Shown piece after piece: positions 2,256 through 45,575 of a DNA stretch of 64,000 nucleotides. Source of the DNA: a virus. The stretch covers positions 34,470-98,469 of IMG/VR virus record IMGVR_UViG_3300046463_000520. One strand, 5' to 3'. The stretch's first letter is position 1. Each line of letters opens with the position of its first letter. Both the position numbers and the translations under genes were made by a program. The notes under the pieces were generated by a model. It did no database searches. It saw only the letters and a list, made by a program, of their open reading frames with translations, and was not told the DNA's origin.

Positions 2256-2737
2256 CGGTTCCCGATATCGCCCGGCGCATCAACGAAGCGGCGAACGCTG
2301 TGACGCTCAAGCATCCGTTCGCGCTCGATTGCACGATCTATCGCAAGGTCGTGAAGCGCGCCGCCGACGGCACAATGGGCGGTGCGCCCACGCTTGGCGG
2401 CTTGGGCGTGCTTTCGCCTGACGACGAAGACCAATTCGAGTATGAGGAAGTCGGGGAAGCGAAGCTGCTGATTACGGACCGCTTCGAAGGCGACATTGAT
2501 ACGACGGACCGGGAAGACGGCTATGTGCCGCCCGCGATGCAACAGGCCAATATCGTCGCGACGTCGCTCCCGGCCTTCGTGATTGAGAAATACGACGTCG
2601 CGGCGGCGATGCCGGGCGGCGGGGTCGTCATCGCATTTGAAATCCTGCGCCTGCCGACGACGACGAGCATCTATCCCTACACGACGAAGTTTGTCATCGC
2701 ACCGCGCGACGACCTGCACACGCTCATTCCGGCGTGA
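2252..2737 (+). CDS. Putative head-tail connector (P1 gp7-like)
   Basis: ATGA overlap, last gene of structural operon; synteny with P1 26-25-7. Confidence 0.45.
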   Translation: MTVPDIARRINEAANAVTLKHPFALDCTIYRKVVKRAADGTMGGAPTLGGLGVLSPDDEDQFEYEEVGEAKLLITDRFEGDIDTTDREDGYVPPAMQQANIVATSLPAFVIEKYDVAAAMPGGGVVIAFEILRLPTTTSIYPYTTKFVIAPRDDLHTLIPA

Positions 2738-3038
2738 CTGCCGCGCTGCCTGTCGGGTTCCGCAGCAAGCCGAAGTCGGCACCCTTGCGAATGACCTGCG
2801 GGCGAAAGCGCGGCGGCACGTCGCGCAGGTCGAAGGCTTCCGGCACGACGAGCACGCTGCCCGCCTCCAAGTCGCAACCGTGGGCGACGGCGAACGCCTG
2901 AAACTGCGCCTCCCAATCGACCATCATCTTATTGACCTGCGCGATGGACTTCTGAAACTGTTCGATGGTCGGCGTCTTCACGTTCTCGTGTGCGCCGACG
3001 GTCGCGGTTGCGCCCGCGAAGGTGTTATGCCGCAGCAT
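2724..3038 (-). CDS. Hypothetical small early protein
   Basis: Overlaps the 3025 gene; last gene of the leftward early cluster. Confidence 0.6.
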   Translation of the reverse strand: MLRHNTFAGATATVGAHENVKTPTIEQFQKSIAQVNKMMVDWEAQFQAFAVAHGCDLEAGSVLVVPEAFDLRDVPPRFRPQVIRKGADFGLLRNPTGSAAVTPE

Positions 3039-3318
3039 TCTGTTCCTCCAAAATCGCTTTCTTCAACATGCCGTGTTTGCGCTCGCTCATGCCCTGCGCC
3101 TGCGCGACCCATACGAGTGCCTCGCTCACAATCGCGGCGACGTCGGCGCGCTCGCCTGCTTTTTCCTGCTGTTCGAGCATGAACCGCAGGGCCGCGTTCG
3201 CCTCGGGCGAAAGCCATGCGGTCAGGCGCGATTCGCCGCGCGCCTTGCGGTCGGCATCGCTTTTCTGCCGCCGCTGTAGCGGCGTCATCGCTTCGTCGTA
3301 AATTCTCTGTCGCGACAT
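3025..3318 (-). CDS. Ribbon-helix-helix DNA-binding protein (Aca10-like architecture)
   Basis: Basic helix, then RLTAWLSPEANAALRFML...VAAIVSEAL, an RHH pattern. Confidence 0.55.
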   Translation of the reverse strand: MSRQRIYDEAMTPLQRRQKSDADRKARGESRLTAWLSPEANAALRFMLEQQEKAGERADVAAIVSEALVWVAQAQGMSERKHGMLKKAILEEQNAAA

Positions 3319-3327
3319 GATCGTTCC

Positions 3328-3681
3328 TTAGAGCGGGGACGGCGAAAGGTCCGTCTCCCGATATTCTGCCGCCTGAAATACGACATTCACCACGGCGTTA
3401 TTCTGCGCGTCGTAATAACCGAAGTACGCGAGATAACCCTCCTTCGTGCGCACCTTGTCGCCGTTCTCGAAGCGGCGCGCAACCGGCTCGACGCCATCGG
3501 GCGCGGGCGCTTCCTCGCTCGGCTTGAACTGCCCGCCGAACTGCGCGAACTTGGTGGCGAAGTGCGCCTGCTCGACCTTCTGAAGCAGGCGTTCCAGCTT
3601 GTATTCGAGCGCGGCGAAATCCGTCGCGCCGTCGCACGCCGCCTGTAGTTCGCGCTCGATGGTGTCGAAATGTTGCTGCAT
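3328..3681 (-). CDS. Hypothetical protein with C-terminal KOW/SH3-like segment
   Basis: FENGDKVRTKEG motif; start at 3681 abuts the upstream stop (start uncertain). Confidence 0.55.
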   Translation of the reverse strand: MQQHFDTIERELQAACDGATDFAALEYKLERLLQKVEQAHFATKFAQFGGQFKPSEEAPAPDGVEPVARRFENGDKVRTKEGYLAYFGYYDAQNNAVVNVVFQAAEYRETDLSPSPL

Positions 3682-3682
3682 G

Positions 3683-4027
3683 TCAGTTCGGTCCGTCGTC
3701 GTAGTCATCGGGATACATGCCGCCACGCGCGGGCGTATTCTCGTCCGGCAGGTGCGACACGCTGTTATGCGCGCTGCGATGGTTCGTGTCGCCGCCGATT
3801 TCCGGCCATATCTCGCGCGCTTCTTCTTCCGAGTCGAAGCCGTCGATGTACTGTTTCATCGTCTGCCCGGCGAGCACGCTCGATTCCGGGTATTCGCCCC
3901 AACCGTACACGGCATAGTGGCGCTCGCCCTTGCACTCGATGGTGAAGCCGCCCGTATAGCGCGTCGCGGCTTGTGCGCGGTGACGGGCGGCGCGTTCGCG
4001 GGCTTCCAGCTTTTGCTGTTCGTTCAT
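3683..4027 (-). CDS. Acidic hypothetical protein
   Basis: RBS AAGGGAGAG; D/E-rich; YPESSVLAGQ core. Confidence 0.65.
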   Translation of the reverse strand: MNEQQKLEARERAARHRAQAATRYTGGFTIECKGERHYAVYGWGEYPESSVLAGQTMKQYIDGFDSEEEAREIWPEIGGDTNHRSAHNSVSHLPDENTPARGGMYPDDYDDGPN

Positions 4028-4200
4028 TTCGTCTCTCCCTTCGGCCAGTTTGCATTGGGCGCGAGCACGGTGCGGAATTTCGGCTCGAATGCTGCGCGCG
4101 GGGTTACGGTCACGGTACTTTTGGCGGAAGTCTTCGCTGCCGCGAGCATTGTCTTGTGGCGCTTCACAATCGAAAGCGATTCAGTCTTACGGGGCAATGC

Positions 4201-4581
4201 TTATCTCCAAGCTATGAGGGTGTCAGGGGCGAACAGACCAAGCCCGCGATGCAGGTCAAGCCCGACGTGCCGCTGCTCGTCGTTCCACTTCCCGGCCTTG
4301 TTCAACGCCCGCCGGTCAATCATCACGTCATGCACGGCGACGAACGGTTCCATACCCATTTCGAGCGCGTCGAGCGCGATCAGGTGCGGCTCGCGCCCGG
4401 CGTCGATATGTGCGCCCGCTTCGGTGTCGCCGCCCACGCCCGCGCCGACGGCGTGATACTGCACGGCGCTCGTCAGGCGAATGTTCGGATACGTGGCGAG
4501 AACCTTCGCTCGGTCCGCTTCGCGCGCGGCGCGCACCTTCGCGGCGAGACTGCGCGCGGCATTGATCTGTTCGAAATTCAT
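4201..4581 (-). CDS. Hypothetical protein, paralog of 4591-4857
   Basis: RBS AAGGAG; shares GRxPxL and DTLxAWR with its neighbour. Confidence 0.65.
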   Translation of the reverse strand: MNFEQINAARSLAAKVRAAREADRAKVLATYPNIRLTSAVQYHAVGAGVGGDTEAGAHIDAGREPHLIALDALEMGMEPFVAVHDVMIDRRALNKAGKWNDEQRHVGLDLHRGLGLFAPDTLIAWR

Positions 4582-4590
4582 GTCGGCTCC

Positions 4591-4857
4591 TTAGCGCCAA
4601 GCAACGAGGGTATCAGCGGCGAGTGTGTCGATGGACTCGGGCAACGAATGGAACGGCCATACGCCTTCGCGAATCGATTCGAGCGACACGAGATACGGCG
4701 CGCGACCGGCGACCACGTAGGCGCGCACCGTCGGGCCGTTCTTACGCAGGTCGGCGACCGTCGTCAGGTGCAGATTGCCGTACACCGACAGGACTTCGGC
4801 GCGGCCTGCTTCGCGTGCGACTTCGACGTTCAGTTCGTTGTTCGTTTGCAGTTCCAT
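4591..4857 (-). CDS. Hypothetical protein, paralog of 4201-4581
   Basis: Ends DTLVAWR; shares GRAPYLVSL. Confidence 0.65.
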   Translation of the reverse strand: MELQTNNELNVEVAREAGRAEVLSVYGNLHLTTVADLRKNGPTVRAYVVAGRAPYLVSLESIREGVWPFHSLPESIDTLAADTLVAWR

Positions 4858-4878
4858 GATTGACCCCGGATGGTTGAG

Positions 4879-5100
4879 TTATTTGCGTTTTGCGGCGTGC
4901 TGGTCGCGCCTGTCTTGCCATTCTTGAATCCAGCGTTCGAGCGTCAATTCGTTGAGCGTGTACACATACACGCTGTCGAAATCCCATTCGTCCGCTTCAC
5001 CTTCGGCGAAGTAGAAATACCCTTCGCCTTTGATAAGCTGCGCGGAACCGCCCCGCGCCGCTATCTCTTTGTTGACCCGCTTGAGCGTCAGGCGCGTCAT
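4879..5100 (-). CDS. Small hypothetical protein (73 aa)
   Basis: MTRLTLKRV...GEGYFYF; start 2 nt after the upstream stop. Confidence 0.6.
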   Translation of the reverse strand: MTRLTLKRVNKEIAARGGSAQLIKGEGYFYFAEGEADEWDFDSVYVYTLNELTLERWIQEWQDRRDQHAAKRK

Positions 5101-5102
5101 GG

Positions 5103-5666
5103 TCAGAATCCGAAGCGTTCGGCGCAAATCGGGCCGATGTTGTTCGCGATGCTCACCGGGTCCGTCAACTCGCGACCGCAGCAAGAGCAACGGCCCGTTT
5201 CCTGACCGTAGGCTTCAGCGGCCTTCTTCGGGTCTGTGCAGACTTCGATAATCGCGGCCTTCTGTTCGTCCGTGCATTCGCGCGTCGCGATGAACTTGCC
5301 GTCGGCGATTTTGCCAAGGTACTCGCCTTCTTCGGTCACGTAGATTGCGCCTGCGTTACGACCGCCTTCCGGCGCGAGTTTGAACACGAAATCGCCAAGG
5401 TACATTTTCGGGCGCTTCAGGCCGCTCGCCACGGCGCGCGAGAAGGCTTCAACGACGTGCGACACGCCCGACACATCCGCCGCCGCGACCGTGCGCGCCA
5501 CGCGCTCCGCGTCGCGTGCAATCGCCTTCTGAACGCCCGCAAACATGTTCTCCGTGAGCACGCCCGACTTCAGAAGCATCCGGTCGCACGACAGGGCGAA
5601 ATCGTTGCCCTTCGCCACGTTCGCGAGAATCCACTTGACTTCAGGTGCGTTCGAACGAAGTTTCAT
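5103..5666 (-). CDS. DUF6011-like Zn-finger protein
   Basis: C-terminal GRCSCCGRELTDPVSIANNIGPIC; RBS GGAG. Confidence 0.7.
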   Translation of the reverse strand: MKLRSNAPEVKWILANVAKGNDFALSCDRMLLKSGVLTENMFAGVQKAIARDAERVARTVAAADVSGVSHVVEAFSRAVASGLKRPKMYLGDFVFKLAPEGGRNAGAIYVTEEGEYLGKIADGKFIATRECTDEQKAAIIEVCTDPKKAAEAYGQETGRCSCCGRELTDPVSIANNIGPICAERFGF

Positions 5667-5701
5667 GTCGTGCTCCGTGGTGGTTCGTGTGTGTGAGCCT
5701 C

Positions 5702-5733
5702 AATAGTATGCGCTCACGAATGAAACCGCAAGC
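5702..5733 (-). promoter_or_regulatory. Early promoter/operator box, copy A
   Basis: TTGCGG-TTTCATTCGTGAGCGCA(17)-TACTAT; one of four near-identical copies. Confidence 0.85.
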
Positions 5734-5751
5734 ATTCGTTTGTGCGGTTGA

Positions 5752-6033
5752 TTACGCTCCCGGCAGCGTGGCCCGGATACCCCATGCGGCGGGCGTGTTG
5801 TCGCCGGTCGTCCAACCCTGTTCGGCCAAGTGGCGCGCGGTGAGCCGGTTCGCGTAGCAGGCGTACCAGAAGTACGACAGGCCGCACGTCGGGAAGTACA
5901 GAAGGACGAACAGAAGGACATGCTTCCAAAGGCCGCGAGCGATCAGCGGCAAACCGCCGAAAAAGAACATCGTCCACGAAAACCCGATTTTGACTTCGCG
6001 CGTAATGCTGTTCTTCTGAAAACGTACATTCAT
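5752..6033 (-). CDS. HrgC/DUF2628-like small membrane protein
   Basis: KIGFSWTMFFFGGLP...L..QGW signature, with hydrophobic segments. Confidence 0.65.
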   Translation of the reverse strand: MNVRFQKNSITREVKIGFSWTMFFFGGLPLIARGLWKHVLLFVLLYFPTCGLSYFWYACYANRLTARHLAEQGWTTGDNTPAAWGIRATLPGA

Positions 6034-6095
6034 GGTCAACCCCGTTAGGTAGTGGTGATACTGCTGATAGTGCCCGGCTCCCGCCGTGCGGATTC

Positions 6096-6332
6096 TTATT
6101 CCCAATCTTTCATCATTTGTTCGGCGTGCTCGATGGCATCCGCCCACGTCCGAATGACGGTGAGCGGCCATGTCGCCCGCTGAAAGTCGCCGCTCGTCTG
6201 CCCGTTGTAGCCTTGCGCGAAAAAGAACGTGCGCTTCTTCGAGTCGCGGATGATCTTTACCCAAAAGCGACGACCGCGAACGTAGTCCGTCGTCTGGTAT
6301 CCCTGCGTGGTCCGTTCCGGTCGCTTCGCCAT
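6096..6332 (-). CDS. Hypothetical protein (78 aa)
   Basis: Open frame in the early cluster, RBS AGGGG. Confidence 0.5.
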   Translation of the reverse strand: MAKRPERTTQGYQTTDYVRGRRFWVKIIRDSKKRTFFFAQGYNGQTSGDFQRATWPLTVIRTWADAIEHAEQMMKDWE

Positions 6333-6352
6333 GCTTCGCCCCTGCGCGCTGG

Positions 6353-6445
6353 TTAAAACAGGTTGAACCACTCCGCGACGAAGTACCCGATGCCCGCCGC
6401 GATGGAAACAGAAAGCCACGCCAAGCCGATCATTTTGTTGCTCAT
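6353..6445 (-). CDS. 30-aa membrane peptide (not in ORF track)
   Basis: MSNKMIGLAWLSVSIAAGIGYFVAEWFNLF*, RBS GGAG. Confidence 0.45.
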   Translation of the reverse strand: MSNKMIGLAWLSVSIAAGIGYFVAEWFNLF

Positions 6446-6488
6446 TTTTGACTCCGGTAGTTGGCCCGGCTTGCGCCGGGCGGGTTCC

Positions 6489-6695
6489 TTACTGCTTTTT
6501 GATGAAATCGAGCACTTCGGCGAACGTCATGCGCTGACGCGACGCCAGAATTTGATCCGAGCCGGGATTGTGCTTCGTCACGTTGAACGAGTCACCGCGC
6601 AGGCGGCGCACGCAGAACACGAACGCGCCGTGCTTGACCGACGTTTCGTTGCCAGTGATTTCCTTCGCGTTCAGGGTTTCGAGCGTTTTGTACAT
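6489..6695 (-). CDS. Hypothetical protein, first gene after early promoter B
   Basis: RBS AAGGAG; followed by a GCCCGGC hairpin. Confidence 0.65.
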   Translation of the reverse strand: MYKTLETLNAKEITGNETSVKHGAFVFCVRRLRGDSFNVTKHNPGSDQILASRQRMTFAEVLDFIKKQ

Positions 6696-6728
6696 CGCGT
6701 TTCTCCTTGGAAGTGATTCGTTACCGTG

Positions 6729-6761
6729 AATAGTATGCGCTCACGAATGAAAGCGCAAGCA
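6729..6761 (-). promoter_or_regulatory. Early promoter/operator box, copy B
   Basis: TTGCGC-TTTCATTCGTGAGCGCA-TACTAT. Confidence 0.85.
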
Positions 6762-6770
6762 CGGATTGCA

Positions 6771-6813
6771 TAGGAAAACGCACGCCGCCGCACACAAGGC
6801 CGGGCCTGACAAT
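6771..6813 (+). promoter_or_regulatory. Late promoter L1 (darA operon)
   Basis: TAGGAAAACG-N27-GACAAT; ATG lies 7 nt downstream (possibly leaderless). Confidence 0.75.
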
Positions 6814-6820
6814 CGAAGGC

Positions 6821-9538
6821 ATGGACTACTTCGCCTCCCTCTTTCGCGCCGCGCACGCGGGCGCTTACGGCATGAACGCGCTGCCGGAACCGACGCGCGC
6901 GCAGAAAGACGCGGGCGACTACGCGAAGGGCCGCATTGACTGGCGCGGCCTGACCATCGCCATCGAGAACCCGCGCGGCTCGCTGCGCCGCTGGCACGCC
7001 GACGACGGCACGAGCGGCGAGAACCTTCAATTGGCGCACTACGGCTATTTCGAAGGCATCGACGGCGCGGACGGCGACGAAATGGATTGCTACGTCGGAC
7101 CCTACCCGGAAGGCGACCGGGTTTTCGTCGTGAATCAGTTCGTGCGCGGCGCGTTTGACGAACACAAGGTCATGGTCGGATTCGTGGACGAGCGCACCGC
7201 GCGCGCCGCGTATCTCTCGAACTTCAAACCGGGCTGGCCCGGCCTGCAAAGCATCGTGGCCTGCACTGCCGGGCAATTTATCGAATGGGCGCGCAACGGC
7301 GATCACACTGCGCCGCTCACGCCGGAACAACTCTCCAACGGGAAAGACATGGAAAAGGTACTTTGGGATAGCGCGGAACTGCCGCAACCGCGCGGCGCGA
7401 GCCTCGCGCAAGTGCTGTATGCGATTCGCGCGCACGACGGCGCGGACGGGCTGTGTTTCGACCCGCTGACCGCCGCCGACATTCTCGAAGACTCCGACGG
7501 CGTTTTGGCGATGGACGCGCTTGTCACGGTCTATCGCAAGCTCGAATTTCAAATGAACGTGCTGCGCAAGCTGCTCGACCGTGTGGGCGGCGCGCTCACC
7601 GTGTCGGCGCTTCAGATTACCGACCCGTTCAAGCGGTCCGGCACGACGAACGTCGCGGCGATTTTCGAATTGAGCGACGGTCAAACCGTGTCGATTTTCT
7701 TCCACAATCCCGACGTCACGCCGCAGAAAATCATGCCGGGCGACGAACTCGTGTCGTGGAAATGGGTGCTCAACAAGAAAGACATTACGCTCGTCGTCGC
7801 ACCGGAACGCGGTCGCGATCTGAACGTGCGCAATGTCGCCGCGCGCGTCATGCAACTGGCATCGAAGAATTCCGCCCGTTTCCAGACGGCGAACGGCAAG
7901 CGCGCCGCAACGATGGAAGCGATTGCCTCGCTGAAGACCGAATTCGAGACGAAGACCGAAACACTCAATGGCCTTCTGACCGAAATCACGGAACTGGAAG
8001 CGAAGGTCGCGGCCCTGCCGCCGAAGGTCGAGCCGGTCATCGAGCCTGTCATCGACCCCGCGCCTGTCGAGCCGGTTGAGCCGGTCGTGGAACCCGTTGT
8101 CGAGCCGGTCATCGAGCCGCTTCCGACCGCCGAAGACCCGGATACCTTCGACCCGACCACGGCGGACAACTACGCCAAAATCGCGGGCGACATGGCGAAG
8201 CTGGAGTTTTATCAGGACACGCTCGACGCGATGTTCCAAAGCCGCGTCATCGACATTCGCAACGCCCTGCGCGAACTCGGATGGGAAGGCGAGAAGTATC
8301 AAGCGCTGTCGAAAAACGGCTACACGGCCTTCTTCAAGTTCGAGCGTGTCGGCGCGGGCGCGAACGTCATCGGCCTCGCCATCGGTCTGGAAGGCTTGCG
8401 CATGACCCCGATTCAAGACGACCTGACGCGCACGCCGCTCGAACTCGCTGCCGCCGTCGATGCGCTCGCGCCCGCGCCGGTCGTGGAACCTGTTGTCGAG
8501 CCGGTCATCGAGCCGGTTGCGCCGCACAAGTCAACGCTGATTCTCGCCGCGCTCGTCGCTCAATTCGGCTGGCGCGAAACGGAAAGCCCGCTGTTTCTGC
8601 AAAAGGACGTCGGCGGCGGCGAGCAAGGCGAAACGAACCCGGAAGGCGCGCGGATTGTGAATGCGCGCTTTGATGACACGTCGCGCTACATCGAACTGCA
8701 ATCGGGCTTTGCAACCGTGTTCGATATGGACACGCGCGACGGCGGCGATGCGCAAGCTGTTGCGGCGACGTTCAATGCGCGCGTCGCGGCATGGGCCGAT
8801 AGCACGGCCATTGCGCCGACGCCGATCCCGGAACCGACCCCGGAACCGGTCGCGCCGCAAGTGCCGGACAACGTTCGCAAGCGCGTACAGATTGCGCTCG
8901 ATACGCTGAAGGACATTCGCGAGTCGCTCGACAACGCCGTGACGCTCGAAGCGAAGGTCGGCGAGTCGGGCCGCTATCAGGCGGATACGCTCAACAATCG
9001 CCGGGCGGAAATCGACCGCTCGCAGGCGACGCTGGCGACGTTCCGCGAGACGGCGGCAAAGCTCGGCATCGACGCCGATGCGTTCATTGCATCGCTTGGC
9101 GGTGAGCCGGACCTGACGCCTAGCGCGCAAGCCGCCGACTGGCTTGCGGGCGAAGCTGAACGCACGCGCATCGCCGCCGAAGCGGAAGCCGCACGCCTCG
9201 AAGCGGAACGTGTCGCCGCCGAACAAGCCGCGAACGAAGCCGCCGCGCGCATCGCCGAAGCGGAAGAAGCCGCCCGCCGCGAAGCCGAAGAAAAGACCGC
9301 GCGCGAAGCTGCCGAAGCGGAAGCTGCCGCCGCTGCGTCGCGCGTCGCCGACGAACTCGCCTTCGTTGCGCGCGCCGCTGCCGGGCAGGAAGACTTTATG
9401 GTTAAGGACGTGACCGACCGCCTCGCAGAAATCGCGAAGACCGCTGAAGCCGGTACGGAACTCGCTGGCCTGCTCGCGCAAGCGAAGACCGCCGCGAAGA
9501 ACGCATTCATTGCGGCATTCAAGGCGAAGGTGGGCTAA
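6821..9538 (+). CDS. darA: DarA-like head/anti-restriction protein with N-terminal inorganic-pyrophosphatase-like domain
   Basis: IENPRGS..HYGY..G.DGD..DCYVG..FDEHK (polyvalent-protein InPase domain); FELSDGQTVSIFFHNPD..SWKW.LNKKDIT (DarA N domain); QDTLDAMFQSRV..RNALRELGW (DarA C domain). Confidence 0.8.
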   Translation: MDYFASLFRAAHAGAYGMNALPEPTRAQKDAGDYAKGRIDWRGLTIAIENPRGSLRRWHADDGTSGENLQLAHYGYFEGIDGADGDEMDCYVGPYPEGDRVFVVNQFVRGAFDEHKVMVGFVDERTARAAYLSNFKPGWPGLQSIVACTAGQFIEWARNGDHTAPLTPEQLSNGKDMEKVLWDSAELPQPRGASLAQVLYAIRAHDGADGLCFDPLTAADILEDSDGVLAMDALVTVYRKLEFQMNVLRKLLDRVGGALTVSALQITDPFKRSGTTNVAAIFELSDGQTVSIFFHNPDVTPQKIMPGDELVSWKWVLNKKDITLVVAPERGRDLNVRNVAARVMQLASKNSARFQTANGKRAATMEAIASLKTEFETKTETLNGLLTEITELEAKVAALPPKVEPVIEPVIDPAPVEPVEPVVEPVVEPVIEPLPTAEDPDTFDPTTADNYAKIAGDMAKLEFYQDTLDAMFQSRVIDIRNALRELGWEGEKYQALSKNGYTAFFKFERVGAGANVIGLAIGLEGLRMTPIQDDLTRTPLELAAAVDALAPAPVVEPVVEPVIEPVAPHKSTLILAALVAQFGWRETESPLFLQKDVGGGEQGETNPEGARIVNARFDDTSRYIELQSGFATVFDMDTRDGGDAQAVAATFNARVAAWADSTAIAPTPIPEPTPEPVAPQVPDNVRKRVQIALDTLKDIRESLDNAVTLEAKVGESGRYQADTLNNRRAEIDRSQATLATFRETAAKLGIDADAFIASLGGEPDLTPSAQAADWLAGEAERTRIAAEAEAARLEAERVAAEQAANEAAARIAEAEEAARREAEEKTAREAAEAEAAAAASRVADELAFVARAAAGQEDFMVKDVTDRLAEIAKTAEAGTELAGLLAQAKTAAKNAFIAAFKAKVG
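8081..8515 (+). repeat. Two 39-bp direct repeats (8081-8119, 8477-8515) encoding PVVEPVVEPVIEP linkers
   Basis: CCGGTCGTGGAACCYGTTGTCGAGCCGGTCATCGAGCCG, one mismatch between copies. Confidence 0.85.
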
Positions 9539-16000: not shown

Positions 16001-19000
16001 CCTGCGCGAAGAAACGCTCGACGCCTATGTCGAATACCTCGCGCACCATGACGACGCCTATTCGGTCGAGAACGACAAGAGCAAGACGGAAAGCATCAAG
16101 CAGGACTCCCTGCTCGCGGAAGCGAAAGACTTGGGTTCGAAATCGGGCGCGCTGCCCTACTTCGAAGACTTGGGCGTGGATTCGCTCGTGCTGGACGAAG
16201 CGCACAACTACAAAAACTCGAAAGTCACGAGCGCGGAATTTACCGGCGCGAAATACCTGTCGGACCCGCAGAAGTCGCAACGCGGCATGGACATGCAGGC
16301 GAAGGCGTGGTTTGTCCGTGGTCTGTCGGACCGTGGCGATGGCGTGGTTTCGCTGACCGCGACGCCCGTCACGAACTCGCCGCTCGAAGTCTATTCGATG
16401 CTCACGCTCGCGCTTGGCGAAGAAGAAGTCAACAACATGTACGGCGTGACCGGCGCGGACACGTTCATGGCGGCGGCGTGCGATATCGAAGAACGCGAAG
16501 AAGAAAACATCGTCGGCAAATTCACCGCGACGCGCACCTTTACCGGCTTGCAGAACGCGGGCCTGCTGCGCCGCCTGCTCCAGACGTCGTGCCTGATTAA
16601 GACGGCGGAAGACGTGAAGGCGGACGGCGTGGATATCCGCGTGCCGCAGGCCGAAGAAATCTCGACGGCGGTCGATATCGGGCCGGACAACTTCGCGACG
16701 CTCATCGCCTACAAAAACGAGTACATGGAAGCGGTCAAGCTCGTGAAGGCGGGCGGCGGCGGACCGGACGACAAGCTCACGGCGTCACCGTTCAACCTGA
16801 TTCGAAAGATGACGAAGGTCATCAACGACCCGGAAATGGACAAGGGCGTGTTCGTCTTCAAGTTCTCGGACGACGAGAAAGAAGGCGCGCTCAAGGCCCT
16901 GCTCGCGTTCAACAAGAAGAAGGTCAAGGAAATCCGCGACACGCTCGACCCGATGCTCGGCAAGGAATTCGTCACGGAAAAGAGTGTGCGTGACACGGTA
17001 ACGGGCGATTTCGTCGTCCAATACAACACGACCATTCAGGCGTTCGCCGCGACCGATGCGAACGGCGACAACGAAATCCGCCTGCCGTCCACGGAATACG
17101 AGACGCAGGAAGCGCTTATCAAGCTGCTCGAAGCCGAAGGCGTGAAGCCGCGCGTGAAAATCTCGCCGAAGCTCGCCGCCGTCATCGCGAACGTGAAGAA
17201 AGAAGCCGCGTACCCGCGTCATATGGGCCACGCCAAGCAAATCATTTTCTGCGACGAACTCGGCCTGCATCCGAAAATCCGGCTCGCGCTCGCGCAGGAA
17301 GTGGGCGTTCCGCTGTCGAAAATCAAGATCGTCAATGCGGTCGCGGTTGACGTCGCGGGTATGCAGGACGTGCAGGACGGTTTCAACGCCGACGGCGAAG
17401 AAAACCGCTACGAATACGTCATCGCCAACAAAAAGGCCGAAGTCGGTATCAACCTGCAAAAAGGCTGTCAGGCTATCCACCATATGACGATTGGCTGGAC
17501 GCCGGACTCGACGCACCAACGCAACGGGCGCGGCGTGCGGCAGGGCAACACGGTCGAGAAGGTCATGGTGTATCACTACGATGCGAACGGCACGTTCGAC
17601 GCCTACAAGCGCAAAATCGTGGATATCAAAGCCGACTGGATTGGCGCGCTCATGTCGGGCGACTCGCAGAAAATCAAGATCGAAGGCGACATGTCCGCCG
17701 CCGATTACGAACTGCTCGCGAACGCCGTGGGCGACGCTGAAGCGATGGAAACGGCAAACAGGGCCATCGCCGACCGCGCCAAGCGCGAAAAGATTCAGGC
17801 CGCGCGCGTGCAGCAAATCCAGTATGTGCGCACCATCGAAGGCGCGAACGTATGGCTCAACAAGTTCGGCGTGACCGGCGAAGACGAGACGAGCGGCTTC
17901 AATGCTTGGGTCAACTCGAAAATCGCGAGCATCCGCGCGCAGGTTTCCATCATCGCCGATATCAAGACGCGGCAGGATGAAACCGAAAGCGACTTGATGC
18001 GCGCGCGGCTGGCGAAGAAGTACGCCGAAGAACGCCCGAAGCTCGACGCGGCCCTGCTCGTCATCGGCGGACTCGCAACGCCGGGCAAAATCCCCGCCGA
18101 ACGCACGTATCGCTCCACGCTCACGGACGAAGACCGCGCATCCGCCGCCTATGCGAACTGGAAGAAGGAACTGACGTTGCGCACGAACATGCGCGACGAC
18201 TCGCGCCGCGCCTTCCTTCAGCGCTCGGAAGACGGCTATACGGTCGATTCGCTCGACGCGCACGCGCGCGGCGAAGCGGCGGTCGTCATGGGTACGCTGG
18301 TTCGTATCGGCTCGTTTGTCGAGAACGGCGACGCGCTGCTGGTTGTGCGCAGCGGCAAGAATCGTCAGGCGGGCAACCTGTACGGTTACAACCCGGCTGA
18401 CCAAAGCGAAATCGAACTGCTGAAAATCGCCAAGCCGGTATTCACGGACAAGGGTTCCGCGCGCTGGCGCTCGCTGGTTGAACAGGCCGTGCGCATGGAC
18501 GAAGCGACCATTGCCGATAGCGATTTCGGCGGCGCGTATGGTGCGAGCGATCCGCGCCTGTACATGTCGATGGTCGAAGACGTGCGCGACGCGATCAGCG
18601 TGCCGGTTCCGTCGGCCCCGCTCTCGAAGTCGTCGTTCTCGTTCAAGCGCCCGTACTTCCCTATCGTGCTCGATGACTTGACCGGCGAAAGCGGCGGCGC
18701 GCTGGCGAAGCGCATCCGTGCGGAACAAATCGACCTGCTCGACTTGGCGAAGGGCAACAAGTGGAACGTCGTGCCGCGCGACACGCGCACCATCGGGCCG
18801 TCGCTCGATATCAACGTGCGCACGCAATCCGAAGCGATCCGCGAGTATGCGGTGGCGCACAATCTGCGCGCGACCGAAGACGACCTGTACGCGATCAATA
18901 GCGGGCTTGGCACGCGCAACGTGGTCGATCAGCTTGGACTGCGCGCGCTGTTCTTCAAGTCGCTGCCCGAAGGCGTCGCGGCAAGCAAGACGCCGGACGA

Positions 19001-20438: not shown

Positions 20439-20774
20439 TCACGAGACGATTCCATAAAAGACGGCCATCGCGCGATTGACCGCAAGCATGGTTTCGTCAT
20501 CGAGACGCCCGACGACCTGCCCGATGTTCTCGCGCGGCACGGCCTGAATCTTATCGACCATGACTTGCGAAGGCTTGTCCAATCCATTCCCCGCGCTCGG
20601 CTCGACCGTGATTCGATACAGCGGCATATCGCGAAGCTCGCTCGTGATAAGCACGATGACGATAGAGGCATGTTCGGCGAACAGGTCCGACTGCACGACA
20701 AGCGCGGGGCGCGGCTTGCCGGTATAGGCCCCTTTCGCGGCGACCGTCACCACGTCACCGCGCATCATTCCCAA
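20439..20774 (-). CDS. mazF: PemK/MazF-family toxin
   Basis: RGDVV..GKPRPALVVQSD..ITSE..NGL.KPSQVMVDKI. Confidence 0.9.
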   Translation of the reverse strand: MGMMRGDVVTVAAKGAYTGKPRPALVVQSDLFAEHASIVIVLITSELRDMPLYRITVEPSAGNGLDKPSQVMVDKIQAVPRENIGQVVGRLDDETMLAVNRAMAVFYGIVS

Positions 20775-20977
20775 CCCTCCCGGTCCGCGACGGACTCGAT
20801 GAAATCCATGATTTCCCGCTCGTGCGGGTCATCGCGCGTGAGAAGCGACTGACGGCGGCATTCCTCCGCGAAGCCCGGCGCGCTCGTGTCGGGAACCCAT
20901 ATCTGCACCGGGCGCAGACCCGCGCGGCGCATGGCGTCGCGGCGCTTCGCGACCCGCTCTGAAACTGTCATTCCCAT
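20765..20977 (-). CDS. DUF3018 / MazE-like antitoxin
   Basis: GLRPVQIWVPD..FAEECRRQS signature; overlaps the toxin start. Confidence 0.85.
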   Translation of the reverse strand: MGMTVSERVAKRRDAMRRAGLRPVQIWVPDTSAPGFAEECRRQSLLTRDDPHEREIMDFIESVADREGWE

Positions 20978-21060: not shown

Positions 21061-21092
21061 GCTTGCGCTTTCATTCGTGAGCGCATACTATT
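21061..21092 (+). promoter_or_regulatory. Early promoter/operator box, copy C
   Basis: TTGCGC-TTTCATTCGTGAGCGCA-TACTAT. Confidence 0.85.
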
Positions 21093-21123
21093 GAGTCTAG
21101 TCCACCACGAAGGGAGCACGAAC

Positions 21124-21363
21124 ATGGCCGTCAACTGGAAGCACGTCGCTGATACGCTCGCCCTGCAAGGCATCGACCTCAATACGCAATTCGATTCGCT
21201 GACCGGCGATCAAGTCAAGATGGTCGAAGACCAAGCGAAGAAAAGCGGCTACCGTGCTCCGAAGAATTCGAGCGCGTCGCCCGCTGACATGTTCTTCTCG
21301 GCGGTGCAGCGCAAGGCGGGGACGCGCCGCCATGCTTCGATCAACTCCCGCAAGGCCATCTAA
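21124..21363 (+). CDS. Small early protein
   Basis: RBS AAGGGAG; GYR.PKNSS.S motif. Confidence 0.65.
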   Translation: MAVNWKHVADTLALQGIDLNTQFDSLTGDQVKMVEDQAKKSGYRAPKNSSASPADMFFSAVQRKAGTRRHASINSRKAI

Positions 21364-21411
21364 CGCCCTGCCCGGCTCACACCGGGCGAAATCCACCACA
21401 AGGGAGCACAC

Positions 21412-21681
21412 ATGGAAGTCACTAAGATGCAGTGGGAAGCGATGGAAGCCTCGCTCGCGAACGACGAGTCGAGCACGGACGAAGAACTGGAAGACCACTT
21501 CGTTAAGGAAGTGGGCGTCACCATCGAAATCGCGCAGTTTGCGATCATCTACCGCGACGACTTCCTGACGGCGGACCCGAATGCGCCGGTTCAGCCGTCG
21601 CTCGCGGACCTGTGGGGCAGCGGCAGCATCGCGGGAGAAGCGCGCGCCGAACGCTGCCTCTCGCCCGGCTACGGTTCCTGA
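21412..21681 (+). CDS. Highly acidic small protein
   Basis: NDESSTDEELEDHF; RBS AAGGGAG. Confidence 0.7.
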   Translation: MEVTKMQWEAMEASLANDESSTDEELEDHFVKEVGVTIEIAQFAIIYRDDFLTADPNAPVQPSLADLWGSGSIAGEARAERCLSPGYGS

Positions 21682-21691
21682 AGGGGCGCAC

Positions 21692-21988
21692 ATGGCAACG
21701 AACAAACCCGTCGTGAAATACTGCAAGCCCGCTCCCGCCACGCTGCGACGCTGGATCGACGCTCACCCTGAGAAAGTCGCGGAATTCGACTGCGGCGGCG
21801 GCTATTGCTTCGGCGATGGTCGCGGATTCGGGTACGACATTCTGTTGGCTCCCGGCTGGCGCATGTCCGATGACTGCGTGCATACGTTGATCGAGCCGAC
21901 CGTTAAAGAAATGCTCGCGCAACTGCGAAGCGTCGTCCCGTGCGACTGCGACGAGTGCAAGGAAATGCTCGAACAGAGCGCGAAATAA
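21692..21988 (+). CDS. Small Cys-containing protein
   Basis: RBS AAGGGG; PCDCDEC. Confidence 0.6.
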   Translation: MATNKPVVKYCKPAPATLRRWIDAHPEKVAEFDCGGGYCFGDGRGFGYDILLAPGWRMSDDCVHTLIEPTVKEMLAQLRSVVPCDCDECKEMLEQSAK

Positions 21989-22032
21989 CAACCACGCCCG
22001 GCCTGCGCGCCGGGCATCACGAGCACACAACA

Positions 22033-22227
22033 ATGGCACTCGACCTATCAAAAATCCCGGCTCACGTTCTCTCTGACGTGCGCGAGCGCGGTCACTCTGA
22101 CGAAGCGATGGCCGCGATGACGCCGCGCGAATTCTTCTCGGAATACTGCAACTGGAACGGCCTCATTCGGTGGGGTGACACGCTGTTTTCCGCTGTCGAA
22201 GCCTGTCAGAAAGCGGGCAAGCCATGA
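22033..22227 (+). CDS. Small hypothetical protein (64 aa)
   Basis: MALDLSKIP...YCNWNGLI; ATGA overlap with the next gene. Confidence 0.6.
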   Translation: MALDLSKIPAHVLSDVRERGHSDEAMAAMTPREFFSEYCNWNGLIRWGDTLFSAVEACQKAGKP

Positions 22228-22469
22228 AAATTGACGAGAAATTCAACAAGCGCGGCGCGAACCTGATTGAAGTGCAAACGCCGTCGGTTCGCGGCGGGCC
22301 GCAATACGCGCTCGGCTTGGTCGCGGAATTTTTCAGGCTTCCGGGCGACGCCGATCACAGCACGATCAAGCTGCACATGACGCCGGGCGAAGCCCTGCAC
22401 TTCGCCGAAGAACTGATAAAGGCGGCGCGCTTTGAACTGCGGGACGTTCTCAAGGGAGACAAAGCATGA
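22224..22469 (+). CDS. Hypothetical protein
   Basis: Translationally coupled on both sides. Confidence 0.6.
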   Translation: MKIDEKFNKRGANLIEVQTPSVRGGPQYALGLVAEFFRLPGDADHSTIKLHMTPGEALHFAEELIKAARFELRDVLKGDKA

Positions 22470-22978
22470 CGAAAATTGACCTTCACGTTTTTGCGCCCGG
22501 CGATCCTGCCGTCGGCATTGCGCACACGCACTGGACTATCGAGAACGTCGGGCCGCTCGACGCCTATCCGAATCAGCGGGACATGGTGCGTCGTCAGTTC
22601 GAACTCGCGTTTCAGTCGCTTGCCGACGGCAAGCTGCGCCTGTTTTTCAGTGACGAGCCGGGCGCGGCGGACCCGGAACCGCAAACGCCGCAGGAACCGG
22701 GCGAATGGGACGTGCCGGGCGTCGAAGGCGGCATTGCCATCGTAAAGCGGACCCGATGGGGCAGCGCGTCGATGGAACTCTACGGCGAAGACGGCGAGCC
22801 GTTCTATGGGAGTCTGCCGGTCGATACGCCGCTGCCGGTCATCAATCAGGCGATGCACCTGATTCAGCGTGCAGAGAAGCGCGGCGAAGAATGGGGTAAG
22901 CGCAGCAAGCAATTCGAAGTTCTCAAGGTGCTCGGCATCGAGAAGCCCTTCGAACTCATGCCGAAGGTGGAAGACTGA
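22466..22978 (+). CDS. Hypothetical protein
   Basis: RBS AAGGGAG; last gene of the cluster. Confidence 0.6.
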   Translation: MTKIDLHVFAPGDPAVGIAHTHWTIENVGPLDAYPNQRDMVRRQFELAFQSLADGKLRLFFSDEPGAADPEPQTPQEPGEWDVPGVEGGIAIVKRTRWGSASMELYGEDGEPFYGSLPVDTPLPVINQAMHLIQRAEKRGEEWGKRSKQFEVLKVLGIEKPFELMPKVED

Positions 22979-24860: not shown

Positions 24861-25705
24861 TGTCCATCTTTGACGAAGTGGAAAACCGGGTCGTCCAATC
24901 GACCACTTCGAGCCTGTCGCAACTGAAGGGCACGATTGCGGGCTTCTCGCCCTTGGGCGCGGGCACGGCGGTGCTCAAGCAAGCCGTCGGCAAGCTCGCG
25001 CCGTCGGCATCGGGCGTGCTCGACAAGGCCCTGCGCGGCGACTTTACGGGCGCGGCATTCGATGCCGTCAACAAGGTCGCGGGCAACGCCATCACGAAGC
25101 TGCTCGCGGGCGGCACGAGCGGCGACATTCTGTTCAACGGCCTGCCGAATCCGCTGCTTGGCGGCATCACGCCGTTTCAGGCCGCGCAAATGGTGACGGA
25201 AATCGCGAGCACGAACTACGCGAAGAAGAACCTGTATTTCATCGAAATCACCGACTACGCAAGCCCGCTTGACGACCAAAACGCATCGGGCCTGTTCAAC
25301 ATGTTCTGCACGAGCGTGTCCATTGGCGGCGGCAACATCATGGGCGAAGCGCACGGCATCGGCTCGGCACAGATGGACATTGTGAATGGCGGCGAGCGCG
25401 ACGAAATCCGTGTGACGACGTATGACGACGCCTACGGGCAAATCAAGCGCTGGTTCAACAAGCGGCGAAGCCTCGCGATCCACGCCGACGGCACGTTCGG
25501 TTTGCCTGCGGACTACCTGTTGCGCCTGCGCATCCTGCACGCCGCCGTGAATGACGAAGTTATGGCGCTGTTCGGCGGGTACGAAGAATCGTACATCGTG
25601 CGCCCGGTCGGTCTGGAAACCGAACTCTCGCGCACGGAAGACGGCCTGCAAGAAATCCAACTGTCGTTCTCGCAGTTCGATACGTTCATGTTCAATCAAG
25701 GGTAG
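24860..25705 (+). CDS. Tail/baseplate morphogenesis protein
   Basis: Coupled to portal, precedes tape measure; tube-like C-terminal pattern. Confidence 0.5.
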   Translation: MSIFDEVENRVVQSTTSSLSQLKGTIAGFSPLGAGTAVLKQAVGKLAPSASGVLDKALRGDFTGAAFDAVNKVAGNAITKLLAGGTSGDILFNGLPNPLLGGITPFQAAQMVTEIASTNYAKKNLYFIEITDYASPLDDQNASGLFNMFCTSVSIGGGNIMGEAHGIGSAQMDIVNGGERDEIRVTTYDDAYGQIKRWFNKRRSLAIHADGTFGLPADYLLRLRILHAAVNDEVMALFGGYEESYIVRPVGLETELSRTEDGLQEIQLSFSQFDTFMFNQG

Positions 25706-25708
25706 TAA

Positions 25709-28330
25709 ATGAAGGCTGACGCTAACGGGTTCCTGATTGCCGACCGCGCGATTTCGGTCGAGTCGCTTGCGGGCGCAATGAAGGGCGTGAAGGGCGACAC
25801 GGCGGCGATTCTCGCGCTGCTGAAGGTCGGCGCACGCGCAACGATCACGCAACGCGCGCGCGTGCTCAATTCGGGCGCGAGTCGCGGCCCGTCGGCGGGC
25901 TTGATGGGCGAACGCCTGCCGCCGCCGTCGGTCGCGCGCGATGAAACCGGCAAGTCGCTGGCGCGCGTCGCGGCGGCAATGGCGCGCGAGCGCGACGAGC
26001 GCGGGCGCTTCAAGCCCTACCCGACCGCCGAACTGACCGAAGTCGCGAAGGCGGTGAAGGACATGACGCGCCGCCAAGCTGCCGAACACGCGGAAGAAAA
26101 GCGCGAGCGCGCGAAACGGTCGAGCAAGGGCGCGGATAGCGCGCAGGGCGGGCCGGATAGCTCCGCGCAGTCGTCGGGCGCGGGCAACGGCGGCAAGCCG
26201 CCACGCGGCCCGCAAAGCGGCAGCGCTACGCCCCTGCAAGCGGGCGCGAACAATGGCAACGCGGATGCGACGCGCGACGCGCGCGGGCGCTTCGTCGGCA
26301 AGGGCGGCGGCGCGGGCAGTGACGGCGAAGGGTCGAGCAACGCGGGCGGGGGGCGCGCGAAGCGTGAGCGCGACGGCGACGGCGTGTTCTCGAAAATGAA
26401 GGACTGGTTCAAGGGCTTCGGCGGCATGAAAGGGCCGCAAATGCCCGGCATGGAAGGTTATGAGAAGGTCGATCCGACCGTCGAAGCGAGCAAGGAACTC
26501 GGCAGCATGATTAAGGCCCCGCTCGCGGCGGTCGGCACCGTCGGCAAGGCGGTCGTCGGGCGCGGCTTCAGCGCGGCATCCAAGCTGCCTGCCGCGCCGT
26601 GGTATCGGCGCATCCTGCGCGAACTGCACCTGTTCCGTGACGAGTCGAGCGCATTCGGCAACGCGGAAACGCGCGTGCTGAAGGAAATCGAGCGCAAGAC
26701 GGGCGGCGGGCCGGGCGCGCAGGGCGGCGGCGGCATCATGGGCGCGCTTGGCGGGATGCTCGGCAAGGGCGGCGGCGGGCTTATGTCGCTGCTTGGCGGC
26801 GGGCTGAAGCTCGGCAAGGGAATGCTCAAGCGCCTGCCGCTTTTGGGCGCGCTGTTCGCGGGCGGCTCCGCGCTCGCGTCGATTTTCGGCGGCGACGACC
26901 CGAATAAGTCGCCGGAAGAAAACCGTAAATCGCGCTTCGAAGGCGCGGGGTCCGGCATCGGCGCGATCATCGGCGGCGGGCTTGGCATGTTCCTCGGACC
27001 TGTGGGCGCGATGATTGGCGGCGTCATCGGCGATAAGGTCGGCGAACTCGTCGGCGCATGGCTTGCGACCGTCGATTGGAGCAAGGTCGGCGACACGATC
27101 ACGAGCGCATGGGATGGCGCGGTTGCGACCGTCAAAGATACGTGGAAGACCGTCACCGACGAACTCGGCAAGGTCACGAAGACCGTTTCTGACGCGTGGA
27201 ATGGCGTCATCGACGGCGCGAAGGCATGGCTGAAAGACAAGCTCGGCATCGACGTCGATGCAGGCGTCGCTAAAGCCAAGGAAATGGCGGGCGCAGCGGC
27301 GGACTACGTGAAAGAGAAGGCCGCGCCGGTCGTGGATGCCGTCACAACCGCCGCGAAGCCGGTTGTCGAAGCCGTGAAGGGCGGCGCGCAGGCGGCGGTC
27401 GATTACGGCAAGGAACGCGTCGAAAAGATGGCCGCGCCGATTGCGACCGCAACGGCGAACGCGCTCGACTACGGCAAGGGGCTATTCGGCGGCGGCTCGA
27501 AGGGCAACAAGGCCGCAGTCATGGCCGAAGCGCAAAAGATCACGGACCCGAATGAACGCGCGATGTTTCTCGCGCAGGTCGATCACGAATCGGGCGGGTT
27601 CCGCTCGACCGTCGAGAACACGAACTACAAGGCGAAGGGCTTTCTCGCCAACTTCGGCGCGCGCAATCACATCACGACCGAAGCGCAGGCGCAGGCGATT
27701 CTGGACAAGGGCGACGATGCCAAGCTCGAAGCCATGTACGGCGGCGCATGGGGCAAGAAGAACCTCGGCAACACGGAAGCGGGCGACGCGGCGAAGTTCA
27801 AGGGGCGCGGGGTCATGCAGCTTACCGGTCGCTCGAACTACACGGCGGCAGGTAAGGCGCTCGGCCTCGACTTGGTGAATCACCCTGAACTGCTCGAAGA
27901 CCCGGCAGTGTCGGCAAAGGCCGCGCTCTGGTATTGGAACTCTCGCAAGGGTCTGTCTGCCGCAGGCAAGGCGGGCGACGTGAGCGCGGCGACCGCCGCC
28001 ATCAACGGCGGGCACATCGGGGAAGCGGACCGAAAGGCGAAGTACGGCACCTATCTCGCCGCGATCAAGGCGGGCGACGCGTCGGTTGCGGCTCCCTCGA
28101 TGCCCGCGCCGACGGCGACGGTTGCCGCCGCCGCGCCGCCGCCCGCGCCGCCTGTGCCGCCCTCACCGGTCGCGCCCGCTACCGCGCCGCCGACGGTTTC
28201 CGCCGACATTCCGCAACCGCTCAACTCGCCCGGCCCTATCGACGTCCGAGTATCGCAAGACTCGACTGTGGGACAAGACCTATCAGACCGCCGATTGGCG
28301 CAAATCGCAACGGGCGGGATTTCCGCGTAA
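25709..28330 (+). CDS. Tape-measure / injection protein with GH19 muramidase domain (Sit analogue)
   Basis: Gly/Ala-rich with W repeats; FLAQVDHESG..FKGRGVMQLTGRSNY..INGG. Confidence 0.8.
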   Translation: MKADANGFLIADRAISVESLAGAMKGVKGDTAAILALLKVGARATITQRARVLNSGASRGPSAGLMGERLPPPSVARDETGKSLARVAAAMARERDERGRFKPYPTAELTEVAKAVKDMTRRQAAEHAEEKRERAKRSSKGADSAQGGPDSSAQSSGAGNGGKPPRGPQSGSATPLQAGANNGNADATRDARGRFVGKGGGAGSDGEGSSNAGGGRAKRERDGDGVFSKMKDWFKGFGGMKGPQMPGMEGYEKVDPTVEASKELGSMIKAPLAAVGTVGKAVVGRGFSAASKLPAAPWYRRILRELHLFRDESSAFGNAETRVLKEIERKTGGGPGAQGGGGIMGALGGMLGKGGGGLMSLLGGGLKLGKGMLKRLPLLGALFAGGSALASIFGGDDPNKSPEENRKSRFEGAGSGIGAIIGGGLGMFLGPVGAMIGGVIGDKVGELVGAWLATVDWSKVGDTITSAWDGAVATVKDTWKTVTDELGKVTKTVSDAWNGVIDGAKAWLKDKLGIDVDAGVAKAKEMAGAAADYVKEKAAPVVDAVTTAAKPVVEAVKGGAQAAVDYGKERVEKMAAPIATATANALDYGKGLFGGGSKGNKAAVMAEAQKITDPNERAMFLAQVDHESGGFRSTVENTNYKAKGFLANFGARNHITTEAQAQAILDKGDDAKLEAMYGGAWGKKNLGNTEAGDAAKFKGRGVMQLTGRSNYTAAGKALGLDLVNHPELLEDPAVSAKAALWYWNSRKGLSAAGKAGDVSAATAAINGGHIGEADRKAKYGTYLAAIKAGDASVAAPSMPAPTATVAAAAPPPAPPVPPSPVAPATAPPTVSADIPQPLNSPGPIDVRVSQDSTVGQDLSDRRLAQIATGGISA

Positions 28331-44692: not shown

Positions 44693-44720
44693 TCAGTAGG
44701 AAAACCATTGTGACGGCAAA

Positions 44721-45090: not shown

Positions 45091-45155
45091 TGTCGTCTTT
45101 CAGAAAGATTTCCCGACCCGAAAACCGAAAAACCGCCGCTGTTGTGCTCACGCCA

Positions 45156-45530: not shown

Positions 45531-45549
45531 CCTGCGGCCCGAAAAGAAC

Positions 45550-45574: not shown

Positions 45575-45575
45575 C

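Follow-up and report, generated by a model that had tools for sequence, protein, structure and literature searches.

A predicted promoter-operator shared by dispersed small-gene operons in Burkholderia-group phage-plasmids, and a ribbon-helix-helix-like candidate for its regulator

In the immI region of phage P22, Arc and Mnt are ribbon-helix-helix (RHH) repressors of Pant that act independently of the main c2/CI immunity repressor, and Arc is encoded in the very operon that it shuts off, through an operator that overlaps a sigma70 promoter. In phage P1, the C1 repressor controls operators that are scattered over the genome. Among the Aca proteins, Aca14 is a small protein of the RHH type, and its gene closes an operon of small phage genes; the inverted repeat to which it binds overlaps the -10 element, and it represses its own operon together with a neighbouring anti-defence operon (Nucleic Acids Res 2026, PMC13551039). 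Aca10 is a predicted helix-turn-helix (HTH) protein with the minimal site ATACGCTCATTGAGCGTAT (PMC9410881). Here, we describe a family of promoter-like sites with a predicted built-in operator in a 64,000-nucleotide stretch of virus DNA (the window; bases 34470-98469 of the 98,469-bp IMG/VR record IMGVR_UViG_3300046463_000520, the whole genome being referred to as G000), together with a small RHH-like protein that may read them. A sequence-only reading of the window had proposed such a circuit and had named Aca10 as its RHH precedent; as described above, Aca10 is a predicted HTH protein (PMC9410881) and the RHH-type Aca is Aca14 (PMC13551039).

Four exact copies of the 18-mer TCATTCGTGAGCGCATAC are present in the window (P1 to P4; Table 1), in comparison to an expected chance count of 0.08 from shuffles, and no further match was found in the window at up to three mismatches. 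The claim of four promoters that share an identical 18-mer is therefore upheld, and a fifth copy with one mismatch (P5) lies outside the window. In a position-weight scan the five sites score 59-71 bits and everything else scores at most 12 bits. When aligned, the four window copies read TTGCNN, a 17-bp spacer and TAC(T/G)AT, with identity from the spacer through TATT and divergence on both flanks. At all five sites, a start codon preceded by a ribosome-binding site lies 36-38 nt downstream of the -10. The same reading had called these promoters near-consensus, which did not hold for G000: with TTGCGC and TACTAT they match the sigma70 consensus at 7/12 positions, and a consensus scan does not flag them. 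In relatives, however, hexamers of the form TTGACG-N17/18-TACAAT reach 10/12, and the promoter reading is therefore supported. Two other interpretations of the repeated sequence were rejected: an inverted repeat TGCGCT-N10-AGCGCA, the left arm of which is no more than the -35 found in part of the G000 and G005 copies and is not conserved among the relatives, and a spacer RNA hairpin, the left arm of which varies without compensation.

Relatives of this genome were recovered through pattern and protein scans. Eight of these are complete and syntenic (G005, G007, G008 and G011-G015; 85-94 kb; 40-80% protein identity), which together with G000 gives nine complete genomes, and several more are fragments. 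A total of 57 sites was found in 12 related records, with 4-7 sites per complete genome (n=9), and the sites always precede small, highly variable genes. All 57 have TTG or TTT, a spacer of 17 bp (31 sites) or 18 bp (26 sites), and TAnnnT, and it is solely within TAnnnT that the -10 varies across genomes. The consensus can be written as TTGMNN, a 17/18-bp spacer and TAnnnT, in which the block TGAGCGCATAC, at -19 to -10, hardly changes, in contrast to the -35 half, the flanks and the leaders, which vary between copies and genomes. This pattern of a kept block in changing surroundings shows that the four to seven predicted promoters of each genome form a class under selection. The positions of the sites are conserved as well; for instance, G005 has sites at positions orthologous to P1, P2, P3 and P5, with many of the genes downstream unrelated, and a site orthologous to P1 is found upstream of a DUF6011 gene in every relative. 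The 253 genes behind the sites in the nine genomes fall into 142 clusters, 98 of which are singletons. A scan of 396 family-level genomes brought up Paraburkholderia sp. C35 and no other, and a second search of IMG/VR extended the set by no lineage. Single 17-mer matches in unrelated IMG/VR contigs were discounted as chance, being intragenic and without promoter context.

The copies of any one genome agree in their core variant, one of the seven G014 sites being the exception. The core is GTGAGCGCATAC in G000, G005, G006, G007 and G013; it is GTGACAACATAC, with GCG replaced by CAA (GTGACAAC), at each of the seven sites of G008 and G009 and of the six on a Paraburkholderia sp. C35 contig; it is GTGAGCGCGTAC (GAGCGCGTAC) at six of the seven G014 sites; and it is ATGAGCGCATAC (ATGAGC) in G011 and G012. 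By type, the variants are GCG, CAA, or an A-to-G change before the -10. The core changes in concert and the sequence around the block varies freely, which indicates that a sequence-specific factor reads these bases. Of the seven occurrences of the 12-mer in the 9.7-Mb genome of Paraburkholderia sp. C35, six lie on the 93-kb phage-plasmid contig; the rest of the genome has one, which is approximately the chance number. This confinement to the phage-plasmid shows, if indirectly, that the predicted factor is encoded by the phage and not by the host, and a host regulon that reads the block is unlikely. Overall, a regulon with a phage-encoded reader is well supported by the comparative data.

The block forms part of an imperfect dyad, GTGAGC|GCATAC, centred between -16 and -15 and overlapping the -10 hexamer. 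The paired fraction (offsets 1-16) is 0.51 at this centre versus 0.24-0.35 at centres shifted by 1-3 bp. At offsets 10-12 the arms pair at 0.51, 0.44 and 0.63, versus 0.35, 0.25 and 0.30 with permuted arms, and thus co-vary (within-genome permutation, p=0.018); G014 has the strongest symmetry, with arms of 15 bp at one site. The sites accordingly combine a block conserved beyond the needs of polymerase with a dyad, albeit imperfect, that extends into the -10, and positions -27 to -4, approximately, make up a predicted protein-binding site with the anatomy of a repressor operator. Since the dyad covers the -10, a repressor occupying it would obstruct RNA polymerase.

Our best candidate for a reader of these sites is the CopB/RHH-like product of the penultimate gene in the P1 operon, at even chances in our assessment, because it is universal, is encoded within the regulon and shows one residue-operator co-change. 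The sequence-only reading had suggested a search of relatives for the 18-mer and for co-occurrence with this gene; sites are present in all eight, and an RHH-like orthologue was found in every relative in which the region is readable, at or near the end of the operon whose site precedes the DUF6011 gene. No other regulator-like gene was found inside the regulon. The orthologues share the pattern RGExRhxxWh, a helix, a Gly-rich turn and (S/E)RGAhxxAhxxAh, and as GExRhxxWh-xEA-xxAL...(S/E)RGAhxxAh this pattern fits the RHH family. At position 4 of the predicted strand, Arg is present in 10/10 records with a GAGCGC-type core (G000, G005, G006, G007, G011-G015 and the record behind locus L097; approximately eight distinct strand sequences), in comparison to Leu or His in 3/3 GACAAC records. 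The strand Arg is thus lost together with the central G·C pairs, as predicted for a base contact. Further strand variants occur in Burkholderia arboris (K/E) and B. gladioli (R/H). In the G011-G015 lineage the RHH-like domain is the C-terminal part of a protein of approximately 175 amino acids (aa), the N-terminal domain of which spans approximately 95 aa (MKVYSG...AVIVAA...; loci L090, L091, L093, L094, L096 and L097, at approximately 6000-7600 in each), and it is a standalone protein in G000, G005 and G008.

A number of observations weigh against this assignment or against repression as such. No RHH-family Pfam match was obtained for any of 13 orthologues at E values up to 10, PF10723 and RHH_1 included, and the protein has no sequence relative in the PDB. 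Its AlphaFold2 (AF2) monomer model (pLDDT 76, pTM 0.34) has helices at residues 38-54 and 60-96, an unstructured segment at 27-37 and no strand, and Foldseek, which had been put forward as a check, gave together with VIA-align generic helical matches and no RHH match. The residue-operator co-change is a single evolutionary event; lineage-specific substitutions affect 2/13 invariant positions, which is ordinary among conserved proteins of these phages; and strands within the GACAAC group differ (RLLHTW versus RHLNMW) despite an identical operator. Outer-arm symmetry is weak in G013 and G015, and the 7/12 match of the G000 promoters is compatible with activator dependence. The protein also has no PHROG match, its family gave no significant hhalign result against the MazE-like antitoxin of the window, and its homologues in a set of 5.8 billion proteins are all annotated as hypothetical protein with no Pfam domain. 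Of the earlier description of this gene, the ORF and its penultimate place in a leftward run of nine genes stand, and the RHH fold lacks confirmation from Pfam or fold searches.

If the RHH-like protein is nevertheless the reader, G000 would carry five copies of one sigma70-type promoter with a built-in operator, each driving a tightly packed run of small genes, and the protein made from near the end of the P1 operon would most likely recognise the operator and repress its own operon along with the four others. Entry of naked DNA would be followed by a burst from all five promoters and then by shut-off, with low steady expression in the plasmid prophage, a logic like that of P22 Arc or the Aca proteins. 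We consider such a shared promoter-operator with an RHH-like common repressor the best explanation of the data, and hold it with confidence that is evenly divided. The claim that a single RHH protein governs at least four islands is in part sustained: the dispersed regulon with its conserved block is present and exceeds the size first given for it, with five operons and approximately 30 genes in G000 and 4-7 operons in each complete relative, and for its control the RHH-like protein is the best candidate. A more ambitious version is doubtful as a whole, namely a CI-independent circuit in which one RHH-like autorepressor, of a family that has no Pfam model, gates 5-7 dispersed, entry-expressed islands with more than 140 mostly phage-unique gene families, a sizeable part of them devoted to counter-defence or host takeover, and in which specificity was re-set from GAGCGC to GACAAC with loss of the strand arginine.

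It is also possible, if rather unlikely, that the operators are read by another phage-encoded protein, either the DUF6011 protein or an unrecognised small one, and that the RHH-like protein regulates its own neighbourhood or is antitoxin-like. The missing hidden Markov model (HMM) and fold support for the RHH assignment and the single covariation event leave room for this, and the DUF6011 gene is the only cargo gene that automatic clustering places in 9/9 complete genomes, always directly after a site and with a Cys-rich C-terminal motif. However, DUF6011 has no known DNA-binding role, its Cys motif is unchanged between operator groups, and a fold search with an AF2 model of the protein gave no informative match and none to a DNA-binding fold. 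An Xre-type HTH protein (record 8247-8441) was rejected as the reader, as just 3/9 complete genomes have it and its helix does not differ between groups A and B, with no covariation; the scanned regulon proteins yielded no other regulator-like domain. The phage P1-like capsid, the Dar proteins and the plasmid lifestyle, along with the scattered operators of phage P1 C1, bring to mind a different arrangement, in which CI binds the sites as secondary operators and the regulon is ordinary immunity; the CI recognition helix is moreover invariant in the nine genomes, as is most of the operator core. Yet in 9/9 genomes no family site lies near CI or cro, where dispersed immunity would lead one to expect it, or within kilobases of CI, the CI-cro spacers have a motif of their own in common, of the TATAAGCAT type, and GCG and CAA genomes have the same recognition helix, TQPTISxLE, despite the operator change. 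CI is therefore unlikely to read the sites, the ordinary-immunity arrangement has a low probability, and the independence from CI that had been proposed agrees with these results. In the same context, the one C1-sized candidate examined, a 274-aa ORF (record 25605-26429), was rejected as a C1-like repressor because it encodes a ParB-like nuclease-domain protein, and the look-alike promoter upstream of it (record 26858-26886) shares the hexamers only and not the operator.

Alternatively, no repressor may be involved, and the block may be a promoter-specificity element for RNA polymerase, reflecting a -15/spacer preference of host sigma70 or a phage-modified polymerase, such that the promoters form a constitutive or activator-dependent class. 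The block abuts and overlaps the -10, the weakness of the G000 promoters would fit a need for help, and many sites have an A-rich, UP-like tract upstream. In contrast, the triplet at -16 to -14 changes jointly across the sites of whole genomes, which is unexpected for a polymerase contact in related hosts, the Paraburkholderia sp. C35 chromosome is all but free of the motif, and the partial dyad reaches approximately 12 bp to either side. Among the regulon genes, the candidate regulators and a few larger ORFs, Pfam and PHROGs gave no convincing sigma or RNA polymerase match, the sole sigma-like one being a weak HTH-type PHROG match of the Cro-like protein. We regard this explanation as improbable. 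The identity of the 18-mers within one genome, and the leader segment that P2 and P4 share in addition, might suggest that the copies have no function and arose by recent duplication or as a mobile promoter cassette, with gene conversion keeping them alike. However, the same 11-12 bp are kept across genomes at the protein identities given above, sequences on both sides differ between copies, and the sites are positionally orthologous; the comparative data contradict a cassette, which is a most improbable origin for these copies.

In comparison to the described systems, the circuit proposed here, with an RHH-like repressor at each operator, is of a known kind, and would differ in its protein family, in its GC-centred operator and in the spread of its operons round the genome. 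It resembles that of Aca14, as both have a small RHH or RHH-like protein at or near the end of an operon, a repeat over the -10, several operons under one repeat and, as proposed for G000, the same burst-then-shut-off logic. The Aca14 site, however, is described as AT-rich, whereas that of G000 is GC-centred; its operons are side by side, whereas 5-7 operons are distributed here round genomes of 85-98 kb; and it controls an anti-defence operon, whereas the G000 cargo has no match to a known Acr or anti-defence gene. Aca10 is likewise the autorepressor of a small-gene operon, and the half-site TGAGCGTAT within ATACGCTCATTGAGCGTAT resembles the G000 core TGAGCGCATAC, which may be due to chance; it is an HTH protein, and no HTH protein was found inside the G000 regulon. 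Arc acts on one promoter pair at one locus, in contrast to five dispersed promoters, and the antirepressor of P22 immI has no recognised counterpart among the G000 cargo. With phage P1 C1 the regulon shares one operator type in dispersed promoters among structural operons, but the main repressor of G000 is a lambda-type CI (HTH_3 and Peptidase_S24 domains), the own region of which is without the motif. Lastly, CopB/RepB-RCR_reg (PF10723) proteins are small RHH promoter repressors with a basic N-terminus and form the nearest ESM language-model cluster to the candidate (0.94, followed by RHH_1 at 0.93); their context is replication genes, whereas the candidate belongs to a phage accessory operon and has no HMM match to either family.

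The genes behind the promoters are mostly small and without names (Table 1). As had been proposed, each promoter heads a run of small ORFs, with nine, four, six and four ORFs behind P1 to P4, respectively, and at least five behind P5; those of P1 are tightly packed and leftward. Analysis of GC content by codon position indicates that the long ORFs at 4249-4863 (plus strand) and 21097-21741 (minus strand) are antisense shadows and that the true coding strand is that of the promoters. Nearly all of the cargo is without a name in Pfam and PHROGs, the exceptions being DUF6011/phrog_4046, phrog_9154, DUF2628 (a weak match) and, among the P5 genes, a Lar-like zinc ribbon below the threshold.

Table 1. 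Predicted promoter-operators, the genes behind them and other features of the window (window coordinates unless marked as record; the 18-mer is that shared by the promoters)
Feature	Position	Strand	Remarks
Promoter-operator P1	5703-5731	-	TTGCGG-N17-TACTAT; core GTGAGCGCATAC; 18-mer 5706-5723; heads DUF6011-to-RHH operon
P1 operon, first gene	5103-5666	-	187 aa; C-terminal DUF6011 Cys motif; DUF6011/phrog_4046
P1 operon, middle ORFs	3328-5100	-	no named function; 4879-5100 (73 aa, phrog_9154), 4591-4857, 4201-4581, 4024-4197, 3683-4027, 3328-3681
P1 operon, candidate regulator	3025-3318	-	97 aa, CopB/RHH-like; predicted strand GESRLTAW, then two helices; penultimate
P1 operon, last gene	2724-3038	-	104 aa; converges on rightward structural gene ending at 2737
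Promoter-operator P2	6730-6758	-	TTGCGC-N17-TACTAT; 18-mer 6733-6750; orthologous position in G005
P2 operon, four small ORFs	5752-6695	-	none with a homologue in G005
P2 operon ORF	6489-6695	-	68 aa
P2 operon ORF	6353-6445	-	30 aa, hydrophobic
P2 operon ORF	6096-6332	-	78 aa
P2 operon ORF	5752-6033	-	93 aa; hydrophobic stretches; weak DUF2628 match
Promoter-operator P3	21063-21091	+	TTGCGC-N17-TACTAT; 18-mer 21071-21088; orthologous position in G005
P3 operon, six small ORFs	21124-22978	+	21124-21363, 21412-21681, 21689-21988, 22033-22227, 22224-22469, 22466-22978; no Pfam or PHROG match
Promoter-operator P4	63335-63363	+	TTGCAA-N17-TACGAT; 18-mer 63343-63360; operon spans circular-assembly junction
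P4 operon, four ORFs	from 63400, past window end	+	crosses assembly junction
P4 operon ORF	63400-63582	+	60 aa
P4 operon ORF	63579-63707	+	42 aa; CxxC...CxxC zinc ribbon
P4 operon, third ORF	from 63731, off window, to record 362	+	
P4 operon, fourth ORF			50 aa; followed by terminase genes
Promoter-operator P5	record 16462-16479 (18-mer)	-	one mismatch; outside window
PemK/MazF-like toxin and MazE-like antitoxin	20439-20977	-	111 aa (PF02452, E 5e-24), overlapping 70 aa (PF11455, E 1e-29)
Plasmid maintenance module	43475-47447		
Rep3-type initiator	43475-44677	-	plasmid maintenance module
Four direct repeats (iterons)	~44761-44991		contain CCCCCTAAACTATGCTGTTTC; beside Rep3 initiator
ParA-like gene	46737-47447	-	plasmid maintenance module

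An anti-defence function of these genes, which had also been suggested, found no backing in the searches. In Pfam and PHROGs the cargo genes gave no match to a named anti-defence family, a dedicated anti-defence library not being among those searched, and the Lar-like zinc ribbon is the sole hint. Across the larger or commoner cargo families of the group, Pfam, PHROGs and PADLOC yielded a resolvase, DUF6283, a weak MazG-like match and unknowns, and PADLOC found nothing credible in the larger cargo. The turnover of small genes beside the Dar module fits counter-defence or host takeover, and it fits lysogenic-conversion genes equally well. The anti-defence label is speculation, and counter-defence is merely one possible role of the roughly 30 controlled genes. 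If the proposed circuit is correct, the conserved promoter-operator would be a search handle for new anti-defence genes, in the manner of aca genes; its 12-bp motif would flag all early accessory islands of these phages, with the 253 genes of the nine genomes, and would define a candidate host-takeover or counter-defence gene set in little-studied Burkholderia-type phage-plasmids. The GCG/CAA operator switch and the Arg-to-Leu/His change could also serve as a clean specificity-swap system for a new RHH-like family. The regulon itself stands as a well-supported comparative finding even if its regulator is another protein.

With regard to its setting, G000 is by its gene content a temperate, circular, 98.5-kb P1-like phage-plasmid of the Burkholderia group. 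This follows from the capsid, DarB-like, Rep3/iteron, ParA and CI features and from the Burkholderia and Paraburkholderia homologues. A 105-bp terminal repeat in the record indicates a circular assembly. The major capsid protein has 41% identity to that of Xanthomonas phage Rb1 and 24% to phage P1 gp23; DarB-like head proteins are encoded, including a DarB-like protein of 2278 aa with N6-methylase and SNF2 domains. Where a homologue of the RHH-like protein carries a source name, this is Paraburkholderia sp. C35, Burkholderia arboris or B. gladioli, and the encoding contigs measure 85-93 kb. G005 has iterons of its own at the place that matches those of G000. The PemK/MazE pair lies directly upstream of P3 and is divergent from it, and is absent from G005, G007 and G008.

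Several additional features of the leaders and promoter surroundings were observed. The leaders of G000 are of two sub-types, as P2 and P4 have the common segment TAACGAATCACTTCC just past the -10 and P1, P3 and P5 instead have TTGAG(G/T)CT. In G011-G015, many leaders have a conserved GC-rich element, GCGGCGCAC-n-G-n-GCGCGGC, located 15-35 nt past the -10 with a TTCATT-like box before it (for example G013 21182, G014 75273 and G011 52903); it is absent from the G000 leaders and may form a hairpin in the leader or provide another binding site. Several of the early promoter-operators are back to back with an opposite-strand, late-type promoter motif, TAGGAAAACGC (for example at window 6771-6800 and at record 16510 and 41240), the rightward one at P2 among them. 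The sequence TAGGAAAACGCA has seven copies in the G000 genome, all on the plus strand, and is found upstream of P2, P5 and several G005 sites.

A megablast search of window positions 2500-7000 against GenBank phages gave no match, and the nearest named phage, Xanthomonas phage Rb1, is without the G000 promoter motif. Rb1 has a dispersed repeat of its own, TACCCGCAGGTA, in five copies, two of which flank its CI and cro, and a second repeat, TATAGCTAGATATAC, in three copies in the small-gene region ahead of its Dar-like genes. The layout of Rb1 is thus similar to that of G000, with different operators.

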